DNA of 41,276 nt from Desulfonatronovibrionaceae bacterium. GTDB lineage: Bacteria > Desulfobacterota > Desulfovibrionia > Desulfovibrionales > Desulfonatronovibrionaceae. This document shows positions 15,366-40,125 of the stretch, piece after piece; the stretch's first letter is position 1; every line of letters starts with the position of its first letter. A program made the position numbers and the translations under genes. The notes below the pieces were generated by a model. That model saw only the letters and a list, made by a program, of their open reading frames with translations, was not told where the DNA came from and ran no database searches. Where the stretch lies: positions 1 to 41,276 of the forward strand of contig JBKHGE010000019.1 of assembly GCA_046539845.1 (NCBI GenBank). Direction: 5' to 3'.

Positions 15366-15372
15366 TTCTCCC

Positions 15373-18216: not shown

Positions 18217-18230
18217 AACCTGTTTTCAGA

Positions 18231-18306
18231 GCGGGTGTAGCTCAGCTGGTAGAGTACAAGCTTCCCAAGCTTGGTGTCGCGGGTTCGATCCCCGTCACCC
18301 GCTCCA
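18231..18306 (+). tRNA. tRNA-Gly (anticodon CCC)
   Basis: GCGGGTG/CACCCGC acceptor stem, CAAGC-TTCCCAA-GCTTG anticodon arm, GGTTCGATCCC T-arm and encoded CCA. Confidence 0.97.
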
Positions 18307-18344
18307 CTCCGATTGAATTTCGGCTTCAGCCGCATCAATTCAAG

Positions 18345-18375
18345 GAGTGGGCCTTGCGGTCCACTCTTTTTTTTG
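18345..18375 (+). terminator. intrinsic terminator between tRNA-Gly and rimP
   Basis: GAGTGGGCC-ttgc-GGTCCACTC hairpin followed by T9. Confidence 0.8.
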
Positions 18376-18398
18376 AAGCGGAGGCTTGGTTTTTGACA

Positions 18399-18863
18399 AT
18401 GCAGGACGATAGACAAAAAAAGATACAAGAATTGATCCAACCCTTGTGCACGGCCATGGGAGTGGATCTTTGGGGCGTGGAGACCTCGTTTTCCGGCAGA
18501 CGTGGCCTGGTCCGCATCTACATTGATACCCCGCAGGGGGTCACTCTGGAGCAGTGCACCGAGCTGAGCCGGGAGGCGGGCAACCTGCTTGATGTAGAGG
18601 ATTTGATCCACGGCTCCTACAATCTGGAAGTGTCCTCTCCCGGCCTGGACAGGGTCTTTTTCACCCCGAAGCAGCTCGCTCAATATCTACAGCGCGAGAT
18701 CCGGGTCATCCTGCATGAGCCTGTGGACGGACGGAAAAAATTTACCGGGCCTTTGCTCTCTGTCTCCGGAGACCGGGTATGCATGCGCATTGAAGAGAGC
18801 GGGGAAGAATTCTGCTTTGATTTTTCTCAGGCTGGGAAGATAAAACTTTTATTCAGGGGATAA
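18399..18863 (+). CDS. rimP: ribosome maturation factor RimP
   Basis: VRIYIDTPQGVTLEQC...LLDVEDLI..SYNLEVSSPGLDR; upstream of nusA. Confidence 0.95.
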   Translation: MQDDRQKKIQELIQPLCTAMGVDLWGVETSFSGRRGLVRIYIDTPQGVTLEQCTELSREAGNLLDVEDLIHGSYNLEVSSPGLDRVFFTPKQLAQYLQREIRVILHEPVDGRKKFTGPLLSVSGDRVCMRIEESGEEFCFDFSQAGKIKLLFRG

Positions 18864-18931
18864 GCCCTAAAGAACACAGGGCAAAATCTTAACACCTTTT
18901 AATTCATTGTTCAGTTGCCCCGGAGGTTTGC

Positions 18932-20290
18932 ATGGGACTGGAGCTCAAAAAAGCCATAGACCAAATCAGCAAAGACAAAGGTATCGATCGGGATATGCTC
19001 GTGGATACCCTGGAAGAAGCGGTCCGCTCTTCCGTGCAGAAAAAATTCGACCGCGACCTGGATATAGAGGTCTCTTTTAACGAAGACAGCGGCGAAATGG
19101 AGGTCTATCAATTCAAAATCGTTGTAGACGAGGTCCAGGACCCGGATGCGGAGATAACCCTGGAAGAGGCTCAGAAACTCGATCCGAACGTGGAAAAAGA
19201 CGACGAGGTGGGCTTCAAGATCAAGGTCGAGGACCTGGGCCGGATCGCGGCCCAGTCCGCGAAACAGGTCATCATCCAAAGGATGCGCGACGCTGAGCAG
19301 GAGATTATCTACGAGGAATACAAGGAGCGCGTGGGCGAGATCGTCAGCGGTATAGTCCAGAGACGGGACCGGGGCGGCTGGATCATAAATCTGGGGCGCA
19401 CTGAGGCCCTTTTGCCCCGCGAGGAACAGATCCCCAAGGAAAGGTTCCGCCGCAGCGATCGGGTCCAGGCCTATCTGATTGAGGTCAAAAAGGAAGGACG
19501 CGGTCCGCAGATCATTGTCTCCAGGTCCCATCCGGAATACATGGCCGCCCTTTTCCGCCGCGAGGTCCCGGAGATATCCGATGGTACGGTAAAAATCATG
19601 GGCGTGGCCCGGGATCCGGGTCGGCGGGCCAAGGTGGCGGTAGTCTCCAGCGAAAGCAATGTGGATCCGGTCGGGGCCTGCGTCGGGGTCAAGGGTTCGC
19701 GCATACACAATATAGTCCAGGAGCTTCGCGGAGAAAGGATAGACATAGTCATCTGGAACCCGGATATCGCCACCTACGCGGTGAGCGCTCTGTCTCCAGC
19801 CCGCATTTCGCAAATCACTGTGGACGAGGAGGAAAAGTCCCTGGAAGTGATCGTGCCTGATGACCAGCTCACCCCGGCCATCGGTCGCAAGGGGCAGAAC
19901 GTAAAGCTGGCCTCTAAGCTTTTGGGCTGGTCCATAGACGTGTTTACCGAGTCCAAATACGGCGAACTTTACGAACACAAGAAAATGCTCCGCCAGGTGG
20001 CCAGTACTGCGGAACTCCCGGCTGAAGCCTTTGTTTCCGCGGGTTATGACCATATCGAACAGGTCCGGGAGGCCTCGGACGAAGAACTTATGGACATAAA
20101 CGGAATGACCCCGGAAAAGATAGACGATGTCCGGGCAGCCATAAATTTTCTGCAATACGATAGCAGTTTTTCCGGTAATCAAGATGGAGACGACTCCGGC
20201 GAACAAGGGGTCCGGGAAACAGCTGAATCCGGAGGAGTCGAGCCGGAGAACGACGACGCCAGGGCAGATGACGAAGACAAAGAAGAATAA
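18932..20290 (+). CDS. nusA: transcription factor NusA
   Basis: Motifs LGRIAAQSAKQVI, ARDPGRRAKVAV, DPVGACVGVKGSRI and AIGRKGQNVKLA. Confidence 0.98.
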   Translation: MGLELKKAIDQISKDKGIDRDMLVDTLEEAVRSSVQKKFDRDLDIEVSFNEDSGEMEVYQFKIVVDEVQDPDAEITLEEAQKLDPNVEKDDEVGFKIKVEDLGRIAAQSAKQVIIQRMRDAEQEIIYEEYKERVGEIVSGIVQRRDRGGWIINLGRTEALLPREEQIPKERFRRSDRVQAYLIEVKKEGRGPQIIVSRSHPEYMAALFRREVPEISDGTVKIMGVARDPGRRAKVAVVSSESNVDPVGACVGVKGSRIHNIVQELRGERIDIVIWNPDIATYAVSALSPARISQITVDEEEKSLEVIVPDDQLTPAIGRKGQNVKLASKLLGWSIDVFTESKYGELYEHKKMLRQVASTAELPAEAFVSAGYDHIEQVREASDEELMDINGMTPEKIDDVRAAINFLQYDSSFSGNQDGDDSGEQGVRETAESGGVEPENDDARADDEDKEE

Positions 20291-20519
20291 ATCCGGGCAT
20301 ACGCCCGTAAGGACCTGTATTATTTGCCGCAGAAAATTTTTCAAGCATGAGCTGACGCGTTACGCTTGCCCGGACAGGGAAGGAAAAGGGTTGATCCCGG
20401 ATCCGGAACAAAAAAGGCCCGGAAGGGGATTTTATCTCTGCGGTAGCGAATCTTGCCGTGAAAAGATAGCCAAGTTCAGGGGCTGGCGAAAAAAATGCAA
20501 GGGGGTAAAAAATGGCTAG
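20268..20519 (+). CDS. ylxR: YlxR/DUF448 (RnpM) protein
   Basis: Motifs PVRTCIICR and GRGFYLC; located between nusA and infB. Confidence 0.88.
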
Positions 20520-23094
20520 CAAGATGCGAGTAAGAGAGCTTTCCGCTGAGCTGGGGATGAGCAACAAGGAGATGATCCAGATGCTCCGGGACCTGGATAT
20601 AAAGGTCAAAAGCCATATGAGCGGGCTTACCGAGGAAGAAGTCCGGGAAGTGCGGGACAGATTTCAGAAAAAAACCGCTGAAGATATAAAAGAAACCAAG
20701 GCGGACTCAGGGGTAATAATCAGGCGACGCAAGAAGAAAAAGCCAGCTGCGGAATCCGGGAGTGAACCGGAAGCGGCCGGAGAAGAGCCCGGAGTTATAC
20801 CCCCCCCGGAAGAAGAGCCCCGAGAAAAGGCCCCGGCTTTGGAAAAAGAGGCCGGTCCGGAAACAAAAGAAGCAGAAAAAAAAGATGCCACCGCAGAAGA
20901 AGCGGTTGGGGAAGAGGAGCGGCAAAAGAAAAAACGGCCCCTGAAGAAGAAAAAACAACCCGAACCCAAGGTCCGGGTCATCTCTAAACCCGAGCCCCAG
21001 CCGGAGCCAGCCCCCTCTCCGGAAGGCGGGCAGGATTTAAGCCCCGAGGAAATGGCCCTGCGCCAGATCAAAGAGGAAGAGGAAAAATCCAAGGAATCCA
21101 AGGACCGGAAAAAGACCAAGAAAAAGGACAAGAAAAAGGACAAACGGGTTGTTGACGTCTCCAATTTCTACTCCGGGGAAAAAGAGACCGGCAAGGCAAA
21201 AAAAGACTTCAAGGCCCGGAAAAAGACTCCGGTCCAGGATAAAACCGGTGCAGCCGCCCGCAAACCCAGGGACAAATCCCGGCCGGCTGCAGAAGAGGAA
21301 GCCGCTACCCAAGCCAGCCAGCCGGTAAAAGCCTCCAAACGCAGGCTGCGCATTGACGAGGCCATACGGGTATCCGACCTGGCCGGACAAATGGGGGTCA
21401 AGGCCCAGGATATCATAAAGACCCTGCTCTCCTTAGGAGTCATGGCGACCATAAACCAGTCCGTGGACGTGGACACCGCAGCAGTGGTGGCGGCGGAATA
21501 CGGATACGAAGTGGAACGAGTGGGCTTTTCCGAGGAGGAATACATCGTCTCCCATCAGCAGGAGGACAAAGAAGAGGACATGCTCCCCAGGCCTCCGGTG
21601 GTAACCATCATGGGCCACGTGGACCACGGCAAGACCTCGCTTTTGGACGCTATCCGCCACTCCAATATCATCGGCAAGGAGACCGGGGGGATTACCCAGC
21701 ACATAGGCGCCTACTACGTATCCACCCCGGGCGGGGACCTGGTCTTCCTGGACACCCCCGGCCATGAGGCGTTTACCGCCATGCGGGCCAGGGGGGCGCA
21801 GGTAACGGACATAGTTGTCCTGGTGGTGGCCGCGGATGACGGGGTCATGGAGCAGACCCGGGAGGCGGTGAACCACTCCAAGGCAGCCGGTGTGCCTTTG
21901 GTGGTCGCGGTGAACAAAATAGATAAGGAAGGAAGCAACCCGGATCGGGTCAAGCGCGAGCTGGCTGATCTGAATCTGGTCCCGGAGGACTGGGGCGGAG
22001 ACACCATCTACAGCCACGTCTCGGCCAAGGAACAATCCGGTATAGAAGAACTCCTGGAAATGGTTCTGCTCCAGGCCGAGGTTTTGGAACTCAAGGCCAA
22101 TCCGAACAAACCGGCCCAGGGACATATTGTAGAGGCCAGACTGGACAAAGGTCGGGGCCCGATGGCCACGGTGCTTATCGAAGGCGGGACCCTGAATCAG
22201 GGCGACCCCTTTGTTTGCGGCCTGCACCACGGCAAGGTCCGGGCCATGTTCAATGACCAGGGCAAGAAAATGAAAAAGGCCGGACCGGCCACTCCGGTGG
22301 AGATCCAGGGCTTCAGCGGAGTCCCGGAAGCCGGGGACGAATTCGCGGTAGTCAAGGACGACAAGGCGGCACGCAAGATCGCCGAGACCAGACAGACCAA
22401 GCAAAGGGAAAAGGAACTGGCCAAGGAATCCAAGATCACCCTGGAGAGTTTTTTGGCTGCCAAGCAGGACGGAGAGGCCCAGAACCTGAACTTGGTTTTG
22501 AAATCCGATGTGCAGGGTTCTCTGGAGGCCATAACCGAGGCCTTGAACAAGCTCTCCACCAAGGAAGTCAGGGTGAATGTCATCCACGGCGGGACAGGGG
22601 CCATCTCCGAGTCGGACATTATGCTCGCCTCGGCCTCCTCGGCGATCATTATCGGATTCAATGTCCGGCCCACGGCCAAGATTCGAGAATCAGCGGAAAG
22701 GGAGCAGGTGGAGATCCGTTTCTACGACATAATCTACGACATGGTGAACGATATCAAGGATGCCATGGCCGGGATGCTCGCTCCGGTGATAAAGGAACAC
22801 TACCTGGGCCAGGCCGAGGTCCTGCAGACCTTCAGCGTGCCCAAGATCGGGACCGTAGCCGGGTGCAAGGTAGCGGACGGCAAACTGCAAAGAAACGCCC
22901 GGGTCCGCCTGCTGCGGGATGGAGTTGTTGTCTACACCGGAGCTTTGAGTTCGCTCAAAAGATTCAAGGACGATGTCAAGGAGGTCTCCAAAGGCCTGGA
23001 ATGTGGAGTTGGTCTGGAACGCTTCAACGATATCAAGAACGGGGACATCCTGGAGGCCTTTCTGGAAACCGAGGAAAAGGCCACCCTGGATTAA
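20512..23094 (+). CDS. infB: translation initiation factor IF-2
   Basis: Motifs [32 protein letters not shown] and [12 protein letters not shown]. Confidence 0.99.
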
Positions 23095-28282: not shown

Positions 28283-28304
28283 ATGCCCGAGATAAGGATA
28301 AGAC

Positions 28305-28724
28305 ATGTTTATAAAGGCAAACTTCGATCTATGTACCGGATGCAGGATGTGCCAGCTGGCCTGTTCAGAAAAAAACTTCGGCGGATACAATCCCCGTTTC
28401 TCCCTGCTCAGGATCGATCCCACCCCGGATCACCTCTGCCATTTCCCAGTACCCTGCAACCAATGCTCGAATCCTTTTTGCGCCAGGGTCTGCCCGGTCG
28501 GGGCCATCTCCAAGGACGACTCTACCCAGACAGTGCTCATTGACCAGGAGACCTGCATCGGCTGCGGCCTGTGTGCGAAATACTGCCCGGTGGGGGTGAT
28601 CATCCAAGAGCCAGAGGGGAAAAAATTTGTAAAATGCGATCTATGCAGCGGAGACCCGGTCTGTGTTTCCGCCTGCCCCACTGGGGCCCTGGAACTGGCA
28701 GACACCGGAGGCGGAAATGAATAA
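28305..28724 (+). CDS. 4x[4Fe-4S] ferredoxin-like electron-transfer subunit of AOR
   Basis: Four Cys groups: CTGCRMCQLAC, CNQC..C..VCP, CIGCGLCAKYCP and CDLC..C..ACP. Overlaps the aor start. Confidence 0.92.
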   Translation: MFIKANFDLCTGCRMCQLACSEKNFGGYNPRFSLLRIDPTPDHLCHFPVPCNQCSNPFCARVCPVGAISKDDSTQTVLIDQETCIGCGLCAKYCPVGVIIQEPEGKKFVKCDLCSGDPVCVSACPTGALELADTGGGNE

Positions 28725-30588
28725 CAGCTACCATAACAGCCTTGTGCATATTGATCTGACTGAATCAAAGGCCCGGGTCCTGGACCTGCCGGAGCAGCTG
28801 CGGGAAGAATATCTCGGTGGCAAGGGATTTGCGGCCAGACTTATGTATGATCTGCTCCCGGCCGGGACACCGGCCCTGGACCCGGCCAACCCGCTTCTGT
28901 TTTTGACCGGTCCCTTGACCGGGACCAGGGCCCCGTCCATGCGTGGCTGCATTGCCACCAAATCGCCGCTGACCGGAATTTTTCTGGACTCTTATTTCGG
29001 AGGGGAATTTTCCCAGGAGATCAAATTCGCCGGATACGACGGGATAATAATCACCGGAAAGGCCGATGAACCGGTATATATTACCCTAAACGATCAGGAA
29101 GTGGAGATCGTTTTGGCCCAGGATTTGTGGGGCAAAGACGCCTTGGAGACGAACCGGGAGTTAAAAACCCGGCTAAAGGATACAGGCGTCAAAATCGCCG
29201 GGATCGGTCCGGCCGGAGAGAACCTGGTTCCGTTCGCTCTTGTAAGCTGCGAGTACAACCGTCAGGCCGGACGAGGCGGAGCCGGGGCGGTCATGGGTTC
29301 CAAGAACCTCAAGGCCCTGGCTGTGCGCGGGAACAGGCTGGTCCGGGTACACGACCCGACGGGCTTCAGGGAGGCGGTATCCAGGGCCGAATCCGAGCTT
29401 GACGCCTCCGAAGAAATAGAAGTCTTGCGCAGGACCGGCACAGCCAGTGCCGTAGAGTTCGCCAATGAAGCCGGCCTGTTTCCGGTGAACAACTTCCAGG
29501 GCGGCTGGTTCGAAAAGGCGGAGCAGCTCGGGGACAAGGGCCAGTCCAGGCATTTATGGCTCCGGAATATCGCCTGCCAAGGCTGTCCCATCCACTGCAG
29601 CAAGGTCGGCGTGATCAGGCGGGGCAAATACGCAGGTGTTGTCTCGGACACGGTGGAATATGAATCAGCCGGACTGCTGGGGGCCAACCTGGGAATCTCG
29701 GACATCCGGGCCGTGACCCATCTGGCCAGCCTGTGCGACCGGCTCGGACTAGATTCCATGTCCGCAGGCGGGGCGATAGGATTTGCCATGGAGGCCTGCG
29801 AACAGGGACTTATCCCCTCCCCTCCGGGAATTGAGCTCCAATTCGGGAACGTAAAGGCGGCCGAATATCTTATCCGGGGCATGGCCCTGCAGGAAAATGA
29901 GCTGGGGATCCTTTTATCCGGCGGGGTCCGCCGGGCGGCGAAAAAAATCGGTCACAAAAGCGAAGAGTTCGCCCTGCACACCAAGGGATTGGAGACCCCG
30001 GCCTGGGGTCCACGCGGGGTGCTAGGCACCGGCCTGGCCTTTATGACCGCGGACCGCGGCGGATGCCACCAGCGAGGCCTGCCCGCGCCTATTGAGGCAG
30101 TTTACGGCCATTACCTGGGTGAAAAAATCGACCCCCACACAACCGCGGGCAAGGCGGCCATGGTCGTGCACATGCAGAACTATTCCGCGGGAACTGATGC
30201 CTTGGTAAAATGCGATTTCGCCACTGCCGGGATAAGCGACAGCACCTATGCCCGGATGCTCACTGCGGCCACCGGGATAAAACGCGGCCCGGAGTTCCTG
30301 CATCACCTGGGAGCCAAAATATGGAACCTGATCCGGACCTTCAATCTCCGGGAAGGCCTTGATCCGGCTGAAGACCGCTTGCCGCAAAGATTTTTGCGCG
30401 ACCCTGTGCCCGACGGCCCCCAAAAAGGGCAAGTCTATCGCCCGGACGATATCTTTGAAATGCTGCAGGACTATTATGGTTTGCGGGGCTGGGATGAAAA
30501 AGGACGGCCGAAGCCGGATACGCTGCAGGTCATGGGGATCGGGGAAGAACCGCTCCTTAGCCTGAAAGACCCCAAGGGCAATAAATAA
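28717..30588 (+). CDS. aor: tungsten-type aldehyde:ferredoxin oxidoreductase (AOR/WOR family)
   Basis: Motifs LGGKGF, KSPLTG, IGPAGEN, GRGGAGAVMGSKNLKA, CQGCPIHC, EYES, CDRLGLD and RGGCH. Confidence 0.93.
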   Translation: MNNSYHNSLVHIDLTESKARVLDLPEQLREEYLGGKGFAARLMYDLLPAGTPALDPANPLLFLTGPLTGTRAPSMRGCIATKSPLTGIFLDSYFGGEFSQEIKFAGYDGIIITGKADEPVYITLNDQEVEIVLAQDLWGKDALETNRELKTRLKDTGVKIAGIGPAGENLVPFALVSCEYNRQAGRGGAGAVMGSKNLKALAVRGNRLVRVHDPTGFREAVSRAESELDASEEIEVLRRTGTASAVEFANEAGLFPVNNFQGGWFEKAEQLGDKGQSRHLWLRNIACQGCPIHCSKVGVIRRGKYAGVVSDTVEYESAGLLGANLGISDIRAVTHLASLCDRLGLDSMSAGGAIGFAMEACEQGLIPSPPGIELQFGNVKAAEYLIRGMALQENELGILLSGGVRRAAKKIGHKSEEFALHTKGLETPAWGPRGVLGTGLAFMTADRGGCHQRGLPAPIEAVYGHYLGEKIDPHTTAGKAAMVVHMQNYSAGTDALVKCDFATAGISDSTYARMLTAATGIKRGPEFLHHLGAKIWNLIRTFNLREGLDPAEDRLPQRFLRDPVPDGPQKGQVYRPDDIFEMLQDYYGLRGWDEKGRPKPDTLQVMGIGEEPLLSLKDPKGNK

Positions 30589-30825
30589 AAATTCTCATTC
30601 AATAACCACGGTTTTTCTTGACCGGTATCATCCTTATCGCTAATTTGCGGATACAAAGCGGTCAAAATCCGCTTCTACTGGATATTCCGGTACTCCGAGC
30701 CCAGAACATGGAAAACGAGTCCCGGAATATTTTAATGCACCTATTTTCGCCGCCCGGACCCGGCGGCAAGCAAAGGTGACTCCAAGGATCCCGGGTAAAG
30801 CACGCCCTCGTCTAAGGACTGATAC

Positions 30826-31323
30826 ATGCTAAAAGACGGTGAAATCCGCGTCCTGCTGGTTGACGACGAACAGACCCTTCTCGAGTTTCTGGCCCGACGG
30901 CTGGAGCGGCAGGGCTTTACCGTCCACGTGGCTTTTTCCGGGGAAGAGGCCCTGGGAGAGGTCACCGAGAATCCCTATGATGTGGCTGTGGTCAATACCA
31001 ATCTGAGCGGCATGAACGGGATAAGGACCCAGAACATGCTCCGGGAGATCCAGCCCGATCTGCAGTGCATCGTCATCACTCAGATGGATTGCGTCTCGGA
31101 TGCTTTACCCTGGGAGACCCAACAATGCTCGTTTTGCCGTTTCTTGTACAAACCGGTCGACTTCCAGAGCTTGGCCTCGACTATTCAGGAACTGTACAAA
31201 GAAAGGCAGAAAGAAAAAAAGCAAAACCTGCAGGCAGAGCAGGGCTCTTTCCAATCCCCTCCATCCGGTTTGCGGGGGTTTTTGCGCAAGCTGAAGGGGC
31301 TCTATGGGATCCCTGGGCAATGA
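30826..31323 (+). CDS. atypical single-domain response regulator (receiver domain, phospho-Asp replaced by Asn)
   Basis: IRVLLVDDE...YDVAVVNTNLSGMNG...FLYKPV, followed by a C-terminal extension. Confidence 0.82.
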   Translation: MLKDGEIRVLLVDDEQTLLEFLARRLERQGFTVHVAFSGEEALGEVTENPYDVAVVNTNLSGMNGIRTQNMLREIQPDLQCIVITQMDCVSDALPWETQQCSFCRFLYKPVDFQSLASTIQELYKERQKEKKQNLQAEQGSFQSPPSGLRGFLRKLKGLYGIPGQ

Positions 31324-31557
31324 TCGAGTCAAAAATAGAGTTCTGCTGAACCGGGCCTTGACCGGCTGTTGAAAATACCCTTATAGCCCAGCCGTTTGAA
31401 GGCCCAAGGTACGGGACACAAGGATTCACGGCCTCAACATACTGAACATAATACTTCGTACTTATTGTTGCTTTGCCGCCGTTGGGCCTTTAAGGGCGGC
31501 CAGTTAAACCCGGCCGGGGCTCAGACGGGCCGGGGACAAACAAAAGAGAGGGAAAGC

Positions 31558-32115
31558 ATGAGCACTGTATCCCGGATCCCGGGAAACAGACCGGGCCCGG
31601 CCAAAGCAGCCGCCGGCCGCCTGACCCGGAAGACTGCCTCGTTTTTTTTGACCTTTTTCCTGATGTTCGGCCTGTGGATAGTGTTTTCCGGGGTATTTGA
31701 GCCCATGTTCTTGTCTTTGGGCGCGGTCTCCAGTCTTTTGGTAGCCGGGATGTACCATCAATTTTTGTTTCCTTATCCCCGGGCAATCTATCTGAAATTC
31801 GTGGTCGTGTTCACCGCATATCTGTTCTGGCTTCTATGGCAGGTGCTCAAGGCCAATCTGCACATTATGCGCCTCATCTTCCATCCCCGATTGATGGAGC
31901 TCATTGATCCGCATATCATCACCTTCAAAACACCGCTTAGAAATACCCTGTCTTTGACCACAATGGGCAATTCCATCACCCTGACCCCCGGGACCGTGAC
32001 CATTAATGTGGATACAGAAGGCAAATTCCAGGTACATTCCATTGACCGACCGTCCTCTCACGGACTGATTTCCGGACCCATGGCGCAAAAAATAAAGCGT
32101 ATATTCGGGGAATAA
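31558..32115 (+). CDS. mrpE: Mrp Na+/H+ antiporter subunit E
   Basis: VLKANLHI...GNSITLTPGTVTI...VHSI. Confidence 0.92.
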   Translation: MSTVSRIPGNRPGPAKAAAGRLTRKTASFFLTFFLMFGLWIVFSGVFEPMFLSLGAVSSLLVAGMYHQFLFPYPRAIYLKFVVVFTAYLFWLLWQVLKANLHIMRLIFHPRLMELIDPHIITFKTPLRNTLSLTTMGNSITLTPGTVTINVDTEGKFQVHSIDRPSSHGLISGPMAQKIKRIFGE

Positions 32116-32118
32116 CGC

Positions 32119-32391
32119 ATGGATCATTTTACTCTCTTTACCGCCCTTTTTCTATGCATGCTCATGCTCATATCCCTGTATCGGGCAGTCTTCGGTCCGA
32201 CTGTACTGGACCGACTCATAGGGGCCAACGCCATCGGGACCAAGACCGTTGTCCTCCTCCTGGTTATCGGCTTCTTATACGACCGGGTGGACATGTTCGT
32301 GGATATCGCTTTGACCTATGCCCTGCTCAATTTCGTGACCGTATTGGCCGCCTCCAAATACTTCTACAAAAAAAGAGGCCTGCGGAAATAA
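32119..32391 (+). CDS. mrpF: Mrp subunit F
   Basis: RAVFGPTVLDRLIG...DIALTYALLNF. Confidence 0.93.
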   Translation: MDHFTLFTALFLCMLMLISLYRAVFGPTVLDRLIGANAIGTKTVVLLLVIGFLYDRVDMFVDIALTYALLNFVTVLAASKYFYKKRGLRK

Positions 32392-32413
32392 CCGGAAAAG
32401 GGGTCTTACTCTT

Positions 32414-32749
32414 ATGCTCGAACTTATTTTAAACGCATTGGTTATATTCTTTCTGTGCTGCGGGCTTATACTCTTCACCGGCGGAGGAGTGGGTATTCTG
32501 CGTATGCCGGACTTCTACACCCGGGTGCACGCGGCCGGCAAGCTGGACACCCTGGGCACCCTGTTTATGATCCTGGGTCTGGCGATTTACAATATTGACT
32601 GGTCCCAACCGGAACTCAGCCAGATACTTGCCAGCATAAAGATGCTGCTTATCGTGGTCTTTATCTTTTACGCCTCGCCCACTGCCACGCACGCCATTGT
32701 TGACGCGGGCATCAAGGCGGGTATGCCCCCCTGGCAGAAGAAAAAATAA
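32414..32749 (+). CDS. mrpG: Mrp subunit G
   Basis: GILRMPDFYTRVHAAGKLDTLG...SPTATHAI. Confidence 0.94.
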   Translation: MLELILNALVIFFLCCGLILFTGGGVGILRMPDFYTRVHAAGKLDTLGTLFMILGLAIYNIDWSQPELSQILASIKMLLIVVFIFYASPTATHAIVDAGIKAGMPPWQKKK

Positions 32750-32760
32750 AGGAGGAGTCG

Positions 32761-33006
32761 ATGCATTGGCCCATTGACCTGATCATTTTGACTCTGGTCA
32801 TCATCTGCGCGGTGACCGCGATCTCGGTGCGCGACCTTTTGGGCACCGCGGTTCTCTTCGGCGCCTACAGTTTTATGATGTGCCTTTTGTGGGCCAATAT
32901 GGGTGCGGTTGACGTGGCTTTTACCGAAGCCTCGGTGGGCGCGGGGGTAAGTTCGGTATTCGTGATCGCCGCTGTATTCAGAACCACACGGAGAACAAAA
33001 GATTGA
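32761..33006 (+). CDS. Mrp-associated DUF4040 membrane subunit (MrpA C-terminal/MbhD-like piece)
   Basis: RDLL...GAVDVAFTEASVGAG. Confidence 0.85.
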   Translation: MHWPIDLIILTLVIICAVTAISVRDLLGTAVLFGAYSFMMCLLWANMGAVDVAFTEASVGAGVSSVFVIAAVFRTTRRTKD

Positions 33007-33830
33007 AGATCTTAGGTCTTGCCATAGTCATTGTCTGCGGGGCGCTACTTCTGTACGCCACTCAGGACTTCCCGGCCTGGGGGGACCCGACCGCTCCGGT
33101 GCATACCCATCTGTCGCCTCATTTCATCACCGAGGCCCTGCACGAAACCGGAGCGCCCAACTTGGTCACCGCTGTTTTGGCTGATTACCGCAGCTACGAT
33201 ACCATGTTCGAGACAGTGGTCGTATTCTGCGCCGGCATAGTGTGCATCCTTTTGCTGCGCACATATGTCCAGAGTACCCGGGGGCAGGAATACCGCCATG
33301 TGCCCACCGGGGTGATCCTGCATATCCAGAATCCGGAGAAAAGCCCTAAAAACATGCGCGAATTCGAATTCGTCGATAATATGTGGGTCCCGCAGGACCT
33401 AATAATCAAGACCTTGAGCCGCCTGCTCATACCATTCACCCAGATCTTTGCCCTGTATGTAGTGGCCCACGGGGACTTCAGTCCCGGGGGCGGATTCCAG
33501 GGAGGAGTCATTTTCGGGGCCAGTCTGATCCTTATGGCCATCTCCTTTGACCTGCGCTTTGCTTTGCGCAGGATATCGGAAAAGGTTCTCGGGCTGCTCT
33601 GCGCCCTGGGGGTGGTTATCTACTCCGGGATCGGAATGGCCTGCATGTTTCTGGGCGGGAACTTCCTGGATTACAGCCGGCTGGCTGCGGTTCTGCCTGT
33701 TGAAGAGCCCTATATCCGGGCCCTGGGCATGCTGGGCGTGGAAATCGGGGTCGGCTTCACGGTCATGGCGGTCATGGTCATCCTGTATACCAATATCGCC
33801 TCCCTGGGCCGGCACAGACAGGGGCTATAA
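33003..33830 (+). CDS. mrpB: Mrp subunit B (MbhE-like plus MnhB domains)
   Basis: Motifs NLVTAVLADYRSYDTMFE, HGDFSPGGGFQGGVI and EIGVG. Confidence 0.9.
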   Translation: MKILGLAIVIVCGALLLYATQDFPAWGDPTAPVHTHLSPHFITEALHETGAPNLVTAVLADYRSYDTMFETVVVFCAGIVCILLLRTYVQSTRGQEYRHVPTGVILHIQNPEKSPKNMREFEFVDNMWVPQDLIIKTLSRLLIPFTQIFALYVVAHGDFSPGGGFQGGVIFGASLILMAISFDLRFALRRISEKVLGLLCALGVVIYSGIGMACMFLGGNFLDYSRLAAVLPVEEPYIRALGMLGVEIGVGFTVMAVMVILYTNIASLGRHRQGL

Positions 33831-33916
33831 AAGCTCTCGCATTGCGGACAAGAATCCGGGCGGGCCGGAGGGTCGAAAACGTCCGCTCAAAAACACAATT
33901 GGTACGGATATCACAA

Positions 33917-34318
33917 ATGCCTGATCTACTTTCGGAAATTGTCAACAAATACAATTACTGGCTGTATATCATCCTCATGATGATCGGTCTGTACGCCATG
34001 ATCGCCAAGAACAACCTGATCAAAAAACTGGTGGGCATGAATATATTTCAAACCGCCATTATCCTGTTTTTCATATCCCTGGGCTACAAAAAAAACGCGA
34101 CCATTCCCATAATCTCCGGCGGACACGGCAAAGACGCGGCCCATCTAAGCATAGATGCGGCACAGTACATAAACCCCTTGCCCCACGTGCTTATGCTTAC
34201 GGCCATCGTGGTTTCCGTGGCCACTTTGGGCGTGGCCCTGGCCCTGATCCTGATGATCTACAAGCGGTATCAGACCCTGGAAGAAGATGAACTCAGAATG
34301 CGGATTAAACAGAGATGA
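33917..34318 (+). CDS. mrpC: Mrp subunit C
   Basis: NLIKKLVG...NPLPHVLMLTAIVV. Confidence 0.93.
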   Translation: MPDLLSEIVNKYNYWLYIILMMIGLYAMIAKNNLIKKLVGMNIFQTAIILFFISLGYKKNATIPIISGGHGKDAAHLSIDAAQYINPLPHVLMLTAIVVSVATLGVALALILMIYKRYQTLEEDELRMRIKQR

Positions 34319-35811
34319 GCGAACACTATCCGGTACTGATAATCCTGGCCCCGCTTTTGGCCGCTTTCTTGAACTCCGGCCTACTGTGGCTCAACAGGCG
34401 GATGTGCTACCCGATTACCGCGCTCGGGATCGGGGCCAGCCTTTACTTCTGCATAGGGCTTTTGCTCCAGGTCCTGACTACCGGGCCGGTCACCTATCAT
34501 TTGGGCGGCTGGGCCCCGCCCATGGGTATAGAGCTCAGGATCGACCACCTGAGCGCCTTGGTCCTCCTGCTTATCCCACCGGTAGCCCTGGTGAATATAT
34601 TGGCCAGCCGCAAGAATGTGCACGAAGAACTGACCTTTAAAAGCGGGGCCTTTTACACCGTATACCTGCTTTTTGTGGCCGGACTCCTTGGCATCGTGGC
34701 CACCGCGGATCTGTTCAACCTGTATGTGCTCTTGGAAATCACCTCTTTGGCCGCCTACGCCCTTTTGGCCATGGGCGACCCGGACCGGGCCCCGCTGGCC
34801 AGCCTGAACTACGTATTTCTGGGGGTGATCGGGGCCAGCTTCTATCTGCTCGGGGTGGGCTATCTGTATATAATGACCGGTTCTTTGAACATGGGTGATG
34901 TGCACTCCCTGCTCCCGCCGATCCTCGAGTCTCCGGCCATCATGGCTGCTTTTGTCTTCTGCCTGGTCGGTGTGTGGATCAAAATGGGGCTTTTTCCCTT
35001 GCATACCTGGATGCCCAATGCCTATGCCTATGCCCCGGTATCCTCCAATCGCCTGATTGCCCCGCTTATGACCAAGGTCATGGTCTACGTGATGATCAGG
35101 ATCATGATCTCTGTCTTCGGCCTGGACTATATCTTCGGGCAGCTGGCTCTGCAAAAATGGGTGCTTATTCTGGCCAGTGCGGCCATAATCGCAGGCGCGG
35201 TCATGGCCCTGGCCCAGAGGGATCTTTTGAAGATGGCCGCATACATCATTGTCTGCGAAATCGGCTATATGGTCGGCGGGGTGTGGCTTGGAAACAATGC
35301 GGGCATGACCGGGTCCATCCTGCACATAGTTAACGACGTGGTCATGACCTTTGCCCTGTTTCTGGCCATCGGGAACATAATCTATATACGGAAGAAAGCG
35401 GATTTTGAACACCTGCGCGGTCTATTCACCACCATGCCCTGGACCATGGCCGGACTATTTTTGACCGGGGCGAGCATCATCGGAGTCCCCCCGACCTGCG
35501 GGTTCTTCAGCAAATGGTATCTCTTGCTCGGGGGGATAGAGGCCGGGTCCTGGCATTTTGTCAGCGCCCTTATCCTGAGCAGTCTGGTATGGGCCATCCT
35601 TTTTTTCCGCATAGTGGAAATTGCCTTTTTCTCGGAAGAAAATCACTCCAGCCACGGCGGGCCCGACCCGGCCCCGGCATTAAACGAGGCCCCGGTATCC
35701 ATGCTTATTCCCCTCGGCTTGGCCGGAACCGCGGTCATAGCCTTAGGCATATGGTCCGGCTACATAGTGCAGTACGTCATTCTCCCCTTTACTCAACAAG
35801 GTATTAGCTGA
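34315..35811 (+). CDS. mrpD: Mrp antiporter-like subunit D (copy 1)
   Basis: Motifs DLFNLYVLLEI, IKMGLFPLHTWMPNAY and GFFSKWYL. Confidence 0.9.
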   Translation: MSEHYPVLIILAPLLAAFLNSGLLWLNRRMCYPITALGIGASLYFCIGLLLQVLTTGPVTYHLGGWAPPMGIELRIDHLSALVLLLIPPVALVNILASRKNVHEELTFKSGAFYTVYLLFVAGLLGIVATADLFNLYVLLEITSLAAYALLAMGDPDRAPLASLNYVFLGVIGASFYLLGVGYLYIMTGSLNMGDVHSLLPPILESPAIMAAFVFCLVGVWIKMGLFPLHTWMPNAYAYAPVSSNRLIAPLMTKVMVYVMIRIMISVFGLDYIFGQLALQKWVLILASAAIIAGAVMALAQRDLLKMAAYIIVCEIGYMVGGVWLGNNAGMTGSILHIVNDVVMTFALFLAIGNIIYIRKKADFEHLRGLFTTMPWTMAGLFLTGASIIGVPPTCGFFSKWYLLLGGIEAGSWHFVSALILSSLVWAILFFRIVEIAFFSEENHSSHGGPDPAPALNEAPVSMLIPLGLAGTAVIALGIWSGYIVQYVILPFTQQGIS

Positions 35812-35813: not shown

Positions 35814-37313
35814 ATGGATGCGATCGTCTCTCTACGCCCTCTGTTTGCGGTCCTGGTGTCTGCACTGATCATCCCGGTGCTTATGTCCAGCGGGAAGCAT
35901 CCGAACGTGCGCGAGGCCTGGACCTTTACCGCCGCGTTTGCCAAGTTCGGCCTGATTGTGTCCATGCTCCCCGGCGTTTTGCAGGGCCGGATATACATGT
36001 TTACCGTGAGCACCCCGTTTCCAGGCCTGCCCATTGAATTACGCGTGGACGCTTTGGGCATGCTCTTTGCCTTGGTGGCCTCGTTTCTATGGATATTCAC
36101 CACTCTGTATTCAATAGGCTACATGCGGGGACTGAAAGAGCACGGCCAGACCAGATTTTTCTCCTTTTTCGCCCTGTCCTTGTCCAGCACCATAGGCGCG
36201 GCTTTTTCCGCCAACCTGTTCACCCTGTATCTGTTCTACGAGATACTGTCTCTGTCCACGTATCCATTGGTCGTGCACCACCAGGACAGAGAATCCAAGA
36301 TCTCCGGCCGGAAATATCTGGGCTTTATTCTGGGCACTTCCGTGGGGCTGGTTCTGCCGGCCATGCTCATCTGCTATCACTACGCCGGGACCCTGGATTT
36401 TACCCCGGGCGGGATTTTGTCCGGTCAGGTCCCGATATCCATGCTCGTTCCCCTGCTTCTCTTGTTTGTCTTCGGGTTTGCCAAGGCCGCGATCATGCCT
36501 TTCCACCCCTGGCTGCCAGCGGCCATGGTCGCTCCCACCCCGGTCTCAGCTCTGCTCCATGCCGTGGCAGTAGTCAAGGTAGGCGCTTTCTCTGTGTACC
36601 GGGTAATTACCGGGATCTTCGGGGTGGACCTTTTGGCTGAATACGGGCTGAACGAAATCAGTATGTACTTGGCCGGGATCACCATAATCGGGGCCTCGCT
36701 TATCGCCCTGAGCCAGGACAACCTGAAACGCAGACTGGCCTTTTCCACCATCAGCCAATTGTCCTATATCGTCCTCGGCGCATCCATGCTCGGCGGCAGC
36801 GCTTTGCTTGGCGGGGCGCTGCATATCGCCAATCACGCGTTTATGAAGATCACCCTGTTTTTTTGCGCCGGGGCCATTTTTGTCCGGCACAAAAAGAAAA
36901 ACATAAGCGAACTTGACGGGATCGGATACAAAATGCCCTTTACCATGGGGGCCTTTGCCATCGGCGCCCTGGGTATGGTCGGTCTGCCACCAGTAGCCGG
37001 ATTCGTGAGTAAATGGTATCTGTGCCTCGGGGCCCTGGAAACCGGCCAGATCCTATTTCTGATCGTGCTTTTGCTGAGTTCGCTCTTAAATGCGGCCTAT
37101 TTCTTCCCCATACTCTATCGGGCCTTTTTTCGCCGACCAACGGAATGGAGACCGGGACAAAGGATAGAGACGGCTGAAGCACCGCTCACTCTTGTTTTCC
37201 CGCTTTGTTGCACCGCCTTTTACTCCGTAGTTCTGGGCATATATCCGGATCTTCCATTCCAGATCATGCAGCTGGCCCAAACAGCGGTCATTCAAATCAC
37301 ACCTGGAGGCTGA
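35814..37313 (+). CDS. mrpD: Mrp antiporter-like subunit D/A-type (copy 2)
   Basis: Motifs LYLFYEI, AKAAIMPFHPWLPAAMVAPTPVSALLHA, LKRRLAFSTISQL and GFVSKWYL. Confidence 0.9.
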   Translation: MDAIVSLRPLFAVLVSALIIPVLMSSGKHPNVREAWTFTAAFAKFGLIVSMLPGVLQGRIYMFTVSTPFPGLPIELRVDALGMLFALVASFLWIFTTLYSIGYMRGLKEHGQTRFFSFFALSLSSTIGAAFSANLFTLYLFYEILSLSTYPLVVHHQDRESKISGRKYLGFILGTSVGLVLPAMLICYHYAGTLDFTPGGILSGQVPISMLVPLLLLFVFGFAKAAIMPFHPWLPAAMVAPTPVSALLHAVAVVKVGAFSVYRVITGIFGVDLLAEYGLNEISMYLAGITIIGASLIALSQDNLKRRLAFSTISQLSYIVLGASMLGGSALLGGALHIANHAFMKITLFFCAGAIFVRHKKKNISELDGIGYKMPFTMGAFAIGALGMVGLPPVAGFVSKWYLCLGALETGQILFLIVLLLSSLLNAAYFFPILYRAFFRRPTEWRPGQRIETAEAPLTLVFPLCCTAFYSVVLGIYPDLPFQIMQLAQTAVIQITPGG

Positions 37314-37318
37314 CCGGC

Positions 37319-37801
37319 ATGAGCAGACAAGCATACATTACAGTGATAATCAGTCTGGGCATCTTTTGCCTCTTGGATCTGCTGCACACCCCAAAGCATC
37401 AGGGCGAATATTTCTGGCACGTCACCCCGGCGTTTAACGCCGTGTACGGCTTTCTGGGGTGCGCCTTGATTGTGGTGGTCTCCAAGGCCATAGGCAAATA
37501 TTGGCTCTGGGTGGAAACCACCTCGGTGCCGCTGCCCAAAAAGGCCTTTGCCGCAAATGCCCGGGAAGTCACGGTTGTCAACTGGTTTGTCACTGAAGGC
37601 GATCAGGTGCAGGAGGGGCAGGAGCTGGTGGAGCTAAAGATCGGCGCACGGCGACCGATAATCGGCTCACCCCAGTCAGGGACTATAATGCAGCGCTTTG
37701 TGGATCAAAACGATATTATCCGCCCCGGGGAAACCCTGGTCAATCTCCGGGTGGACGAATCCATGGAACAGGTTGACGACAGGGTGATCATCAATGGTTA
37801 A
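37319..37801 (+). CDS. small 2-TM Mrp-associated membrane protein fused to a biotinyl/lipoyl-like domain
   Basis: N-terminal hydrophobic helices (FWHVTPAFNAVYGFLGCALIVVVSKAIGKYWL). C-terminal VTVVNWFVTEGDQVQEGQELVEL...SPQSGTI...PGETLV. Overlaps the next gene's start. Confidence 0.8.
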   Translation: MSRQAYITVIISLGIFCLLDLLHTPKHQGEYFWHVTPAFNAVYGFLGCALIVVVSKAIGKYWLWVETTSVPLPKKAFAANAREVTVVNWFVTEGDQVQEGQELVELKIGARRPIIGSPQSGTIMQRFVDQNDIIRPGETLVNLRVDESMEQVDDRVIING

Positions 37802-39557
37802 TTCGTTTCCCCCGGCCGTATTGTTCATCGCCGCCGCCCTACTCATTCCAATGTTCAGAGGCACGGCCCGGAAGGTTTACATGCTGGCCGTCCCGATACT
37901 GGGATTTATGCAGCTGCTTTACCTGCCCGCTGGCTCCCATCTGACGGTCACTTTTTTGAACGCCTATGAACTGACCCTGCTCCAGGTGGACCCCATCCGG
38001 CTCTGTTTTGGATATGTATTTGTAATCATGGCCTTCTTGGCCACCGTGTTCGCCTTGCACGAGGAAAAACCCTACCAGCACATGGCCGCGTTTTCCTATG
38101 TTGGCAGCTCACTGGGAGTAGCCTTTGCTGGAGACTTCCTTACCCTGTTCATCTTCTGGGAGATCATGGCCGTTACCTCGGCAGCCATCATATTTCTGCG
38201 GAATATAAAGGCTGCCAGGGAGGCGGGAGCCCGCTATCTTTTGGTCCATGTGGCTGGCGGGGCCTGCCTGATGGCCGGGATCGTGTTCCAGCTCTTACAG
38301 ACCGGCTCTCTGGATATAGTCCGCCCCGAACCCGGATGGGCCTTTGGTTTTATCCTGGTCGGCTTCTGTCTCAACGCAGCAGTGCCCCCCCTGTCAGCCT
38401 GGCTCTCGGACGCCTATCCCGAAGCCTCGGTCACCGGATCCATCTATCTGACCGCTTATACGACCAAGACTGCGGTCCTGACCCTGGCCCTGGTCTTCCC
38501 GGGCACGGAGATCCTGGTCTGGGCCGGGGCAATCATGGCCCTGTACGGAGTGGTCTTTGCAGTCCTGGAAAACGATATCCGCCGCCTTTTGGCCTATCAC
38601 ATAATAAGCCAGGTCGGATACATGGTCTGTGGTGTGGGCCTGGGCACTGCCCTGTCTTTAAACGGGGTCACCGCACATGCCTTTTGCCACATTTTATACA
38701 AGGGACTGTTGTTTATGGGCGCGGGCGCGGTCATATACGCCACCGGCAAACGCCAGCTGAGCGAACTAGGCGGCATCTGGCGACTTATGCCCATCACCCT
38801 GACCCTGTATATGATCGGGGCCTTTTCCATCTCCGGGGTCCCAGGCTTTAACGGCTTTGTTAGCAAGACAATGATCATTAGCGCAGCCGGGTATATCCAC
38901 CGTCCGGCCATTGAGCTCATGCTTTTAATGGCCTCCATAGGGACCTTTCTGCACACCGGACTCAAACTGCCCTATTTTACCTTTATTCACCCCCGGGACC
39001 GGGGGCTGACTGTGTGCAAGCTGCCCAAAAACATGCTCTTTGCCATGGCCGGCGGGGCCTTTCTGTGCATCCTGATCGGGGTCTATCCACACATTTTGTA
39101 CCGTATCCTGCCTTTCAGTGCAGAATACCACCCCTACACTGCCGGCCATATCTTCAGCGAATTCCAGCTGCTGCTTGCCACCGGCCTGGCCTTTATGCTC
39201 TTTGTCAAACAGCTCGGCGGGCATCCGGCGATCACCCTGGATACGGACTGGTTCTACCGCAGAGGCGGCAGATGGCTGTATGCCTTTTTAGACAAGGGCC
39301 TAAACACGCTGCTCGCCCGATGTGAAACCGCGCTGGTCAAGACCAGCCAGGGCACGGCTGTCTTCTTTCGCGATGCCCTGGCCCGGATCCTCCTCTTTGT
39401 GATGGTTAATGTCTGGCTCGTTCAGGGATTGCGAGGCAGGTGCCTGGAATTCAAGAAATATAATCTGTATTCGGATGTAAAAGACGGCACCCTGCCCGTT
39501 GGGCTGGGAGCGGCTGTATCCACGCTGTTTATTGTCTTGATCTACGTGATGAGCTGA
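37794..39557 (+). CDS. mrpD: Mrp antiporter-like subunit D (copy 3, long C-terminus)
   Basis: Motifs FIFWEIM, LNAAVPPLSAWLSDAYP, RRLLAYHIISQVG, GFVSK and LDTDWFYR. Confidence 0.9.
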   Translation: MVNSFPPAVLFIAAALLIPMFRGTARKVYMLAVPILGFMQLLYLPAGSHLTVTFLNAYELTLLQVDPIRLCFGYVFVIMAFLATVFALHEEKPYQHMAAFSYVGSSLGVAFAGDFLTLFIFWEIMAVTSAAIIFLRNIKAAREAGARYLLVHVAGGACLMAGIVFQLLQTGSLDIVRPEPGWAFGFILVGFCLNAAVPPLSAWLSDAYPEASVTGSIYLTAYTTKTAVLTLALVFPGTEILVWAGAIMALYGVVFAVLENDIRRLLAYHIISQVGYMVCGVGLGTALSLNGVTAHAFCHILYKGLLFMGAGAVIYATGKRQLSELGGIWRLMPITLTLYMIGAFSISGVPGFNGFVSKTMIISAAGYIHRPAIELMLLMASIGTFLHTGLKLPYFTFIHPRDRGLTVCKLPKNMLFAMAGGAFLCILIGVYPHILYRILPFSAEYHPYTAGHIFSEFQLLLATGLAFMLFVKQLGGHPAITLDTDWFYRRGGRWLYAFLDKGLNTLLARCETALVKTSQGTAVFFRDALARILLFVMVNVWLVQGLRGRCLEFKKYNLYSDVKDGTLPVGLGAAVSTLFIVLIYVMS

Positions 39558-39642: not shown

Positions 39643-40125
39643 ATGGTTGATAAATACGAGTTGCGCAGGATCTCACTTATTCAGGACATGCCGGACAAAA
39701 TGCTCGATCTGCTGGGCGAAGCCGGGGAGCTTAAGATCTTCAGCGACGGGACCACCCTGTTCAGCCAGGGACAGGTCCTGGATAAATGCTACATGGTCTT
39801 AAGCGGTACCGTGCTTCTGGAGGTGAAGCCGGTCCAGGACGTGATAATCACCCTGGACAGCCTGGGTCCGGGCACCTGTTTTGCCCTTTCCAGCCTGATC
39901 CCGGACAGCGTAAGCCAAAACAGCGCGGTATGCGGGGAGAGCTGCGAGCTGCTCTGTCTGCCGGCCCAGAAATTGCGCGAGATATTTGCCGAGCACACCG
40001 ATCTCGGATACCAGTTCATGTACAGGATAACGGCCGCGTTCAAGGAACGCATGGAGCACAGGACCAGCCTGTTTTTGCGCGTTTTGCAGAACCATCCCGA
40101 CCTAAAGGAGCTTTTCTCCGAATAA
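39643..40125 (+). CDS. stand-alone cyclic-nucleotide-binding (CAP_ED-like) domain protein with no HTH
   Basis: LFSQGQ..KCYMVLSGTV...LGPGTCFA...ESCELL...LGYQFM. GGAGGA RBS. Confidence 0.82.
   Translation: MVDKYELRRISLIQDMPDKMLDLLGEAGELKIFSDGTTLFSQGQVLDKCYMVLSGTVLLEVKPVQDVIITLDSLGPGTCFALSSLIPDSVSQNSAVCGESCELLCLPAQKLREIFAEHTDLGYQFMYRITAAFKERMEHRTSLFLRVLQNHPDLKELFSE

Follow-up and report, generated by a model that had tools for sequence, protein, structure and literature searches.

What does a lipoyl-type domain do on a membrane subunit of an ion pump when its acceptor lysine is missing? This question is raised by contig JBKHGE010000019.1 of a Desulfonatronovibrionaceae bacterium (GenBank assembly GCA_046539845.1, positions 1 to 41,276; this whole stretch of 41,276 nucleotides is called the window here). 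Its Mrp-type antiporter cluster encodes, between two antiporter-like subunits termed D2 and D3, a small protein of 160 amino acids (aa) made of a two-helix membrane half and a barrel half. The original prediction, made from the letters alone, had taken the protein for a membrane-tethered, probably unmodified module that links the antiporter to a soluble partner. Judging from the fold and the missing lysine, the identity as a membrane-tethered, unmodified barrel appears to be right; the link to a soluble partner is unsupported. The present analysis makes it probable that the protein is an unmodified accessory subunit of a group-3 Mrp complex, with its barrel docked on D3 at the cytoplasmic side as a structural cap. 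New here are the recognition of the membrane half as an apparently unannotated family of the D2/D3 pair and the modelled placement of the barrel on D3. The open reading frame (ORF) and its parts are as follows.

37319 to 37801, + strand: small subunit with a C-terminal lysine-less lipoyl-like domain, 160 aa
37319 to 37516, + strand: two-helix membrane domain, residues 1-66 (hydropathy; stand-alone homologues between D2 and D3)
37562 to 37747, + strand: barrel-sandwich (lipoyl/biotinyl-fold) domain, residues 82-143 (PF00364, 31.9 bits; AF2; Foldseek)
37643 to 37648, + strand: G109-A110 in place of the lipoyl D-K pair (ungapped alignments)

The ORF runs uninterrupted from ATG 37319 to TAA 37801 on the + strand. 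It follows the end of D2 (37313) after a gap of 5 nt and overlaps the start of D3 (37794) by 8 nt, and the coordinates confirm the layout first read from the letters. A GGAGG motif lies 8 nt 5′ of the ATG. A longer frame opening with TTG at 37205 was rejected as a gene because the relatives all start at the Met of ATG 37319. The domain junction near 37510 is not an assembly chimera, since contigs of three sequencing runs cross it without an indel or a joint and three other genomes also carry the two-domain gene. Specifically, contigs of runs X1 and X2, which may be the source sample, span 36900 to 38200 unbroken with zero differences, and a contig of run X3 spans 37141 to 38200 with six substitutions and neither indel nor joint. 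A 169-base contig of run X4 also spans the domain border. Within the ORF, the X3 substitutions are a synonymous change at 37531 and D146A at 37755. These two variants mark a near-identical strain in the third sample and match the protein P0002 (99% identical).

Pfam, AlphaFold2 (AF2), and Foldseek agree that a lipoyl/biotinyl-fold domain is fused to the small membrane subunit of this Mrp cluster, as had been proposed. Residues 82-143 match Pfam Biotin_lipoyl (PF00364) with 31.9 bits against a cut-off of 22.1 (E 1.2e-7), and in a phmmer search of solved structures residues 76-146 align ungapped to E2 lipoyl domains (E 6.6e-6 to 7.5e-5). The AF2 prediction for residues 62-160, made on a 40-row alignment, is all-beta with a pLDDT of 86.6 and a pTM of 0.74, its last nine residues being disordered; a full-length prediction on the 5-row alignment A1 was poor (pLDDT 48.3) and was not used. 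Foldseek returned 61 PDB matches at E <= 0.001, headed by E2 lipoyl and biotin carboxyl carrier protein (BCCP) domains (E from 2.7e-6), with target-normalised TM scores up to 0.88 and with 3crk_C, 2d5d_A, 1qjo, and 2l5t among the top matches. The protein ends 17 residues after the barrel, including an acidic tail, EQVDD.

The register of the lipoyl D-K pair falls on G109-A110, and the nearest lysine, K107, lies three residues before it, precisely as the letters had suggested (37643 to 37648). Canonical domains bear the acceptor lysine at a beta-hairpin tip, in the motif DK if lipoyl and MKM if biotinyl. Nor is the lysine conserved in the family. The acceptor column reads A,E,D,S,D,Q,T,G,D,S,S,R,R,E,R,K,R in 17 two-domain proteins, so that a search of the homologues for a retained D-K pair yields Lys in one of 17 (P0024, in the hairpin 'TEKG'); Arg occupies the column in four of 17 ('ETDRG'). 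This column is the least conserved of the hairpin, with an identity of 0.17 among the six closest proteins and 0.06 among all 17. K107 itself reaches 0.33 among the six closest and is Glu in P0004 and P0005. The distant members P0024, P0008, and P0013 score 35-38 bits on PF00364, above the cut-off, and to judge from the ETDRG and TEKG hairpins in distant members, the barrel may well descend from a genuine lipoyl domain. Because the acceptor lysine is absent, the barrel should carry neither lipoate nor biotin and would not act as a swinging arm. Ligases are nevertheless encoded in the genome: an LplA-type lipoate-protein ligase (LplA-B_cat, 1.7e-69) and a second BPL_LplA_LipB ligase. Their ordinary clients are at hand as well, namely GcvH on contig C40 and a 1238-aa frame on contig C44, the only other match to PF00364 above the cut-off in the whole genome, which we take for a putative pyruvate carboxylase.

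The membrane half has its own story. Hydropathy gives two hydrophobic segments, at residues 3-25 and 35-61, bearing out the two transmembrane helices first proposed for the N-terminal half. Pfam and NCBIfam searches with residues 1-74 and with nine stand-alone homologues gave no match at E <= 10 beyond noise, and by the same profile test the membrane half shows no homology to any of MrpA-G. NCBI and UniRef name the stand-alone homologues hypothetical or uncharacterised. Atlas clusters of look-alikes have no family attached, and Atlas feature matches for the whole protein were all < 0.9; both are leads only. When 401 genomes of the phylum were searched with a profile of the five closest proteins, the full-length match was in the own genome only, whereas residues 1-65 alone matched many frames of ~70 aa with E down to 8.7e-16. 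These stand-alone proteins have 69-96 aa and the same two-helix layout, with a tail reading (R/K)(E/K)EDYYD or a close variant right after helix 2.

Their gene position is constant. At 31 of 31 loci (30 distinct places) the small ORF lies between the gene best matching D2 (50-91% identity) and the gene best matching D3 (45-86%). The wider flanks of 20 loci are Mrp-type clusters with the window's gene order in 18 and complex-I-type in two, where NuoB/C/D/H/I/J stand beside the D2-small-D3 triad. Eight further loci of the own family have the same triad (five Mrp-type, two complex-I-type, one partial), seven of the seven with both flanks included, and it also occurs in loci L053, L056, L090, and L091 and on contig C6 of the own genome. 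Altogether, each of the 43 places with both flanks on the contig has the small ORF between D2 and D3. As far as sequence comparison goes, the membrane half represents a family of small, unannotated proteins found with the D2/D3 pair in every case, and its conserved operon position and tight gene spacing are those of an accessory subunit of a group-3 Mrp cluster. One Mrp-type locus (L057:8185-13822) is arranged D2-small-D3-small-D3 by tandem duplication; because of this arrangement, the small subunit and D3 seem to duplicate as a unit. Such a duplication would give four antiporter-like subunits.

Complex-I-type operons with an embedded triad were also seen at L056, L058, L072, L081, and L084. 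The own genome holds one alongside its Mrp-type cluster: on contig C6 (~11800-22950), NuoB/C/D/H/I/J are grouped with D2, a stand-alone small protein, D3, and two more antiporter-like genes. According to the available text of a preprint on Manganitrophaceae (10.1101/2021.11.15.468770), some forms of complex I have two MrpD-like subunits in place of NuoL, and the C6-type operons resemble these forms.

The fusion of the two halves is rare, yet it is conserved and under purifying selection, and the concern that it might be a one-off is dispelled by four genomes, 13 clusters, and a dN/dS ratio (nonsynonymous to synonymous substitution rates) of about 0.1. Among 61 relatives, four have a two-domain gene: the own genome, a second genome of its genus, and two from a different family within the order. 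Such genes were also found in three of 401 genomes of the class and in one of 401 in the phylum sample. Searching 1.84 billion representative proteins with the A1 profile gave 13 entries with both halves among the top 150 matches, at 131-174 aa, E 5e-61 to 2e-13, and 22-51% identity to the window protein. All 13 clusters are ~156-174 aa long except one N-terminally truncated record of 131 aa, and the longer proteins among the top 150 are matched over the barrel only. A metagenome scan with the subgroup alignment A3 matched 194 stretches, none of them a relative; L030, which a metagenome scan had brought up with P0012, proved to be an unrelated lipoyl domain and was not used. Databases label the fusion protein by its domain only: the protein of L053 is letter-for-letter P0004, which NCBI names 'lipoyl domain-containing protein [Desulfohalobium retbaense]'. 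The four fusion loci (the window, L005, L006, and L053) share the same gene order, with D2 72-91% and D3 73-86% identical to the window's.

Selection was estimated by the Nei-Gojobori method. Comparing the window with L005 gave a dN/dS of 0.084 in the barrel (residues 82-145) and 0.057 in the membrane half (residues 1-66); L006 compared with L053 gave 0.129 and 0.021, respectively. All these ratios are rough because dS was 1.0-1.5 or more, near saturation. The last 15 codons of the ORF (37754-37801), which overlap the start of D3, have a dS of ~0.2 compared with > 1 elsewhere in the ORF. This low value suggests that the nucleotides themselves are constrained, by the D3 ribosome-binding site or by translational coupling. 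Our literature search brought up no paper that connects a lipoyl or barrel-sandwich domain, or the small subunit, with Mrp or complex-I-like clusters, the 'lipoyl' papers being judged by title and the start of the abstract, and nothing on a small subunit between mrpD genes.

Where might the barrel sit? We modelled D3 together with the small subunit, from alignments of 23 and 39 rows, respectively. The model has an ipSAE of 0.77, the best of three controls being 0.00; its three runs share >= 94% of contacts, and the pLDDT of the partner is >= 74. It passes the tool's mark, which 116 of 157 solved complexes and two of 215 mismatched pairs reach, counts that are only roughly valid here because our own alignments were fed to the model. 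The PDB sequence search found no solved relative of the membrane half (the matches cover residues 68-156 only), and it is therefore unlikely that the pass reflects a memorised structure. The small subunit is predicted to make contact through residues 1-74 (both helices and the linker), through barrel residues 124-129, 132-139, and 142, and through the tail at 148-151. The corresponding residues of D3 lie in hydrophobic segments (253-258, 366-386, and 450-475) and in loops (137-140, 317-324, 406, and 477-483). The model thus supports binding of the small subunit to D3 without showing it.

Two further observations bear on this placement. The contacted D3 loops are rich in Lys and Arg (K+R = 3, 3, and 6), residues that are absent from loops 48-61 and 441-452. 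Loops rich in these residues are cytoplasmic by the positive-inside rule, and the contacted loops should therefore face the cytoplasm. Since the small subunit has two helices, its C-terminus should be on the side of its N-terminus, and its charges after helix 2 (K56, K60, K74, K75, and R82) agree with the pattern of the D3 loops. The barrel is thus presumably cytoplasmic. Furthermore, among the six closest proteins the barrel is better conserved inside the predicted interface than outside it (identity 0.79 vs 0.63), a contrast reached in 369 of 10,000 random draws (0.037). A patch at residues 121-140 is conserved; the hairpin lies outside the predicted interface, and its tip is the least conserved part (0.17-0.33).

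The reading we favour, and hold to be probable, is that of an unmodified accessory subunit of a group-3 Mrp complex. Its N-terminal two-helix hairpin would pack against the membrane helices of D3 (residues 366-386 and 450-475). The barrel would be an insertion between helix 2 and an acidic tail, at a place where the small protein of most genomes has a short acidic tail only. Its conserved face (124-139 and 148-151) would dock onto the Lys/Arg-rich loops of D3 (137-140, 317-324, 406, and 477-483), and the barrel may act as a fixed structural cap that stabilises or modulates the D3 face of the pump. Several points weigh against this reading. A purely structural role leaves unexplained why most genomes manage with a 5-residue tail. 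The interface is a predicted one, with D3 as the sole partner modelled; moreover, the small-chain alignment is shallow for the barrel (17 rows), with stand-alone tails misaligned into it. The contrast in interface conservation is modest (p ~0.04) and comes from related sequences. The topology is derived from hydropathy and charge counts alone, and the last 110 residues of D3 are without clean alternation. Besides, the synteny count leaves out the gene contexts of the 13 divergent two-domain clusters.

Could the barrel instead be an adaptor through which a soluble regulator or enzyme is brought to the antiporter? The foremost candidate for such a partner is the 160-aa cyclic nucleotide monophosphate (cNMP)-binding protein encoded directly 3′ of D3. 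In each of the four fusion loci (the window, L005, L006, and L053), D3 is immediately followed by this gene, whose product has 160-170 aa. Elsewhere in the phylum, all 17 Mrp-type loci whose small subunit stands alone lack the gene after D3, as judged by Pfam on ORFs of >= 90 aa that begin no more than 1.8 kb past it (an eighteenth offered no sequence there), and so do four loci of the same family with downstream sequence (BLAST only). The hairpin at 105-113 is not among the residues contacting D3 in the model and may be free for a partner. However, genome G405 of the same genus has two loci in which D2, a stand-alone small protein ending in KENYYQ, and D3 are accompanied by a cNMP gene (80% and 72% identity to that of the window); since these loci lack the barrel, the cNMP protein can do without it. 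The four fusion genomes, moreover, come from two genera of one order, and the four-of-four association therefore amounts to at most two independent cases. The hairpin tip, being the least conserved part of the barrel, also argues against an adaptor. The cNMP protein thus appears to be a feature of this clade's Mrp clusters and not of the barrel; an adaptor role is possible but unsupported, and we regard it as unlikely. The same holds for the original prediction's claim that the domain links the antiporter to a soluble partner, with the gene present in two barrel-less loci and the hairpin tip so variable.

The cNMP protein deserves a description of its own. It has ~160 aa and no DNA-binding domain (sources place it in the Crp/Fnr family) and is encoded at 39643-40125 in the window, at L090:3381-3863, and at L091:3357-3839. 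It follows D3 in the own genus and in a sister family, and homologues 61-81% identical occur in other records. It may regulate Mrp complexes.

A bolder proposal would make the two-helix protein a universal partner, hitherto overlooked, of D3-type subunits with their lateral arm wherever D2/D3 pairs occur, in Mrp and complex-I-like clusters alike, with its cytoplasmic tail as a control point of the pump. The barrel, as this lineage's elaboration of the tail over the cytoplasmic face of D3, would then be a regulated cap or a landing site for a signal protein (e.g., the cNMP-binding one), and P0024-type members would perhaps be lipoylated. If true, it would give Mrp- and complex-I-type ion pumps a built-in regulatory module. 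We consider it a long shot.

Improbable as well is a neutral relic, in which the small subunit would simply put up with a lipoyl domain that it once acquired and that no longer does anything. Such a history would fit the rarity of the fusion (three of 401 genomes of the class and one of 401 in the phylum sample), the lost acceptor residue, and the many genomes without a barrel. Against it, the dN/dS of the barrel (0.08-0.13) is near the values of the membrane half, and the two-domain architecture is kept down to 22-38% identity in the 13 clusters, with three distant members above the PF00364 cut-off. The conserved patch at residues 121-140 also weighs against a relic.

It is very improbable that the barrel is periplasmic and resembles the lipoyl-like domain of HlyD/AcrA-type membrane-fusion adaptors, e.g., in packing oligomers outside the membrane. 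There are weak sub-threshold matches to HlyD_D23 (E 0.023), RND_mfp, and type_I_hlyD, and BSH families of adaptor proteins appear among the Pfam labels precomputed for the relatives. The scores, however, are far below the cut-offs (HlyD_D23 14.4 vs 30, RND_mfp 15.7 vs 94.9, and type_I_hlyD 14.2 vs 208 bits). No HlyD/RND adaptor profile scored above its cut-off, the coiled-coil and beta-barrel domains of such adaptors are missing, and the protein ends 17 residues after the barrel. Two hydrophobic segments with Lys/Arg after helix 2 put the C-terminus on the side of the N-terminus, and the complex model sets the barrel on the K/R-rich loops of D3. Finally, a true carrier, with lipoate or biotin on K107 or another Lys shuttling groups or electrons to or from the membrane complex, is hardly credible. 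In its favour, the genome has the two ligases, K107 lies three residues before the canonical position, P0024 (TEKG) keeps the canonical Lys, and four members read ETDRG. Against it, ligases need their lysine exactly at the hairpin tip, and Ala110 occupies the canonical column. K107 varies even among the six closest proteins (0.33), the ligases have GcvH (C40) and the PF00364 frame of 1238 aa (C44) as ordinary clients, and no E1, E3, or carboxyltransferase is found in the window.

The accessory-subunit reading also draws on the surrounding genes, which are listed here in order; the small subunit lies between D2 and D3.

31396 to 32115, + strand: MrpE-like subunit (Pfam MNHE 7.5e-28; NCBIfam PRK12652), start codon uncertain, long N-terminal extension
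32119 to 32391, + strand: MrpF (Pfam MrpF_PhaF 7.1e-14, above cut-off)
32414 to 32749, + strand: MrpG (Pfam PhaG_MnhG_YufB 1.6e-25)
32761 to 33006, + strand: MbhD-type subunit, equivalent of the MrpA C-terminal piece (Pfam MbhD 6.7e-18)
33003 to 33830, + strand: MbhE plus MnhB-type subunit (Pfam MnhB 4.4e-26, MbhE 1.6e-8)
33842 to 34318, + strand: MrpC/NuoK-like subunit (Pfam Oxidored_q2 2.3e-20; NCBIfam PRK07375), true start probably later in frame
34315 to 35811, + strand: antiporter-like D1, MrpD/NuoN-like (Proton_antipo_M 9.5e-49; PRK12662)
35814 to 37313, + strand: antiporter-like D2, also with a Proton_antipo_N domain (Proton_antipo_M 3.5e-53; Proton_antipo_N 1.9e-7; PRK08375.1-1 6.2e-199)
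37794 to 39557, + strand: antiporter-like D3 with a C-terminal extension, 587 aa (NCBIfam PRK12668 1.5e-204)
39643 to 40125, + strand: stand-alone cNMP-binding-domain protein (Pfam cNMP_binding 1.6e-14)

The order is thus E, F, G, MbhD, B, C, D1, D2, small subunit, D3, with no intact mrpA. D3 runs ~110 residues past the common core; this stretch contains a conserved LDTDWFYR motif and, at its end, a hydrophobic segment. This extension is presumably of the lateral-arm type, if the architecture of NuoL and MrpA is a guide. No clear indels specific to barrel-bearing clusters were found in D2 or D3, where the variable C-terminal region of D3 alone differs. By gene content, the cluster fits 'group 3' Mrp as defined in the available text of PMC8415708 and PMC5703873. 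The MrpE-like frame has 239 aa; since its MNHE domain begins at residue 88 and its first ~70 residues form a basic stretch of low complexity, translation probably begins further downstream. In L005 and L006 the homologues have 184-195 aa.

Pfam was run on 44 ORFs of the window, and the remainder are flagellar, translation, and toxin-antitoxin-type genes, a ferredoxin, an aldehyde:ferredoxin oxidoreductase, and a response regulator. No 2-oxoacid dehydrogenase (E1/E3), carboxylase, or carboxyltransferase is among the 44, as the reader of the bare letters had noticed for dehydrogenases and carboxylases. Directly upstream of the Mrp cluster, on the same strand (28305-31323), are genes for a 4Fe-4S dicluster ferredoxin, an aldehyde:ferredoxin oxidoreductase, and a single-domain response regulator; the L005 cluster, too, has a response regulator before it (52% identity). 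The left end of the window (1-2097) has PIN-domain, HTH, and HipA-like genes of toxin-antitoxin-type modules, unrelated to the small subunit. Elsewhere in the own genome (2.3 Mb), contig C16 (~16600-21000) has a second Mrp-like antiporter set, and contig C11 (~28300-32800) has a set of NuoB/D/H-like genes plus one antiporter-like gene, which may encode a hydrogenase-type complex.

In short, a small protein of no named family, labelled 'hypothetical', is the constant companion of D2/D3 in both Mrp- and complex-I-type operons. In a few lineages of sulfate reducers it bears a presumably cytoplasmic lipoyl-fold domain without its cofactor lysine, probably one more instance of the barrel-sandwich fold put to structural use on an ion pump. 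Should the barrel modulate or gate D3, it would offer a handle on the regulation of these pumps. Since the fusion-bearing P0004 is named from a described species, biochemical tests may be feasible.

How does the protein compare with known systems? The E2 lipoyl and BCCP biotinyl domains (PF00364) share its fold and a recognisable sequence, with an ungapped E2 alignment. In contrast, the small subunit has G-A for D-K, a two-helix membrane anchor, and an Mrp operon without E1, E3, or carboxylase, and its barrel is predicted to be fixed on a membrane subunit and not to swing. The Na+-pumping oxaloacetate decarboxylase, to which the layout had been likened, is also a membrane ion pump with a PF00364-fold domain, and the oadA model gives a weak match (E 0.064). 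The likeness holds for the membrane anchor and the fold, and it fails for the chemistry: in the decarboxylase the domain has a conserved Lys that bears biotin, and it ferries CO2 from one catalytic site to another, whereas the window cluster has neither acceptor Lys, nor carboxyltransferase, nor OAD beta subunit.

The N-terminal domains of NqrA (PF05896) and RnfC (PF13375) give weak matches below the cut-off (E 0.036 and 0.17, respectively). These barrel-sandwich domains carry no prosthetic group and are structural, on the cytoplasmic side of an ion-translocating complex. They differ in being domains of large soluble subunits of unrelated complexes, with no two-helix anchor. Another parallel is MbhI, or the TM15-16 piece of MrpA and NuoL, as a small separate membrane subunit beside an antiporter-like subunit in a split group-3-type module. 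To our knowledge, MbhI is without a barrel domain. The parallel is one of arrangement, and D3 appears to carry a C-terminal extension of its own. A table in PMC8415708 equates the N-terminus of MbhI with TM15-16 of MbsH′/MrpA.

The same source gives the stand-alone mrpEFGBB′CD of Pyrococcus furiosus as group 3 Mrp. This system resembles the window cluster in having no intact mrpA, in the collinearity of the first seven genes, and in several D-type genes (PMC8415708, PMC5703873). The available text of these two papers mentions no small extra subunit or lipoyl-like domain for group 3 Mrp, and the window cluster differs in having three antiporter-like subunits and the small subunit. A further counterpart is the stand-alone small protein itself, which is homologous to residues 1-66 and has the same D2-D3 position and two-helix layout; to this common plan, the window protein adds a linker, an 80-residue barrel, and the acidic tail EQVDD.

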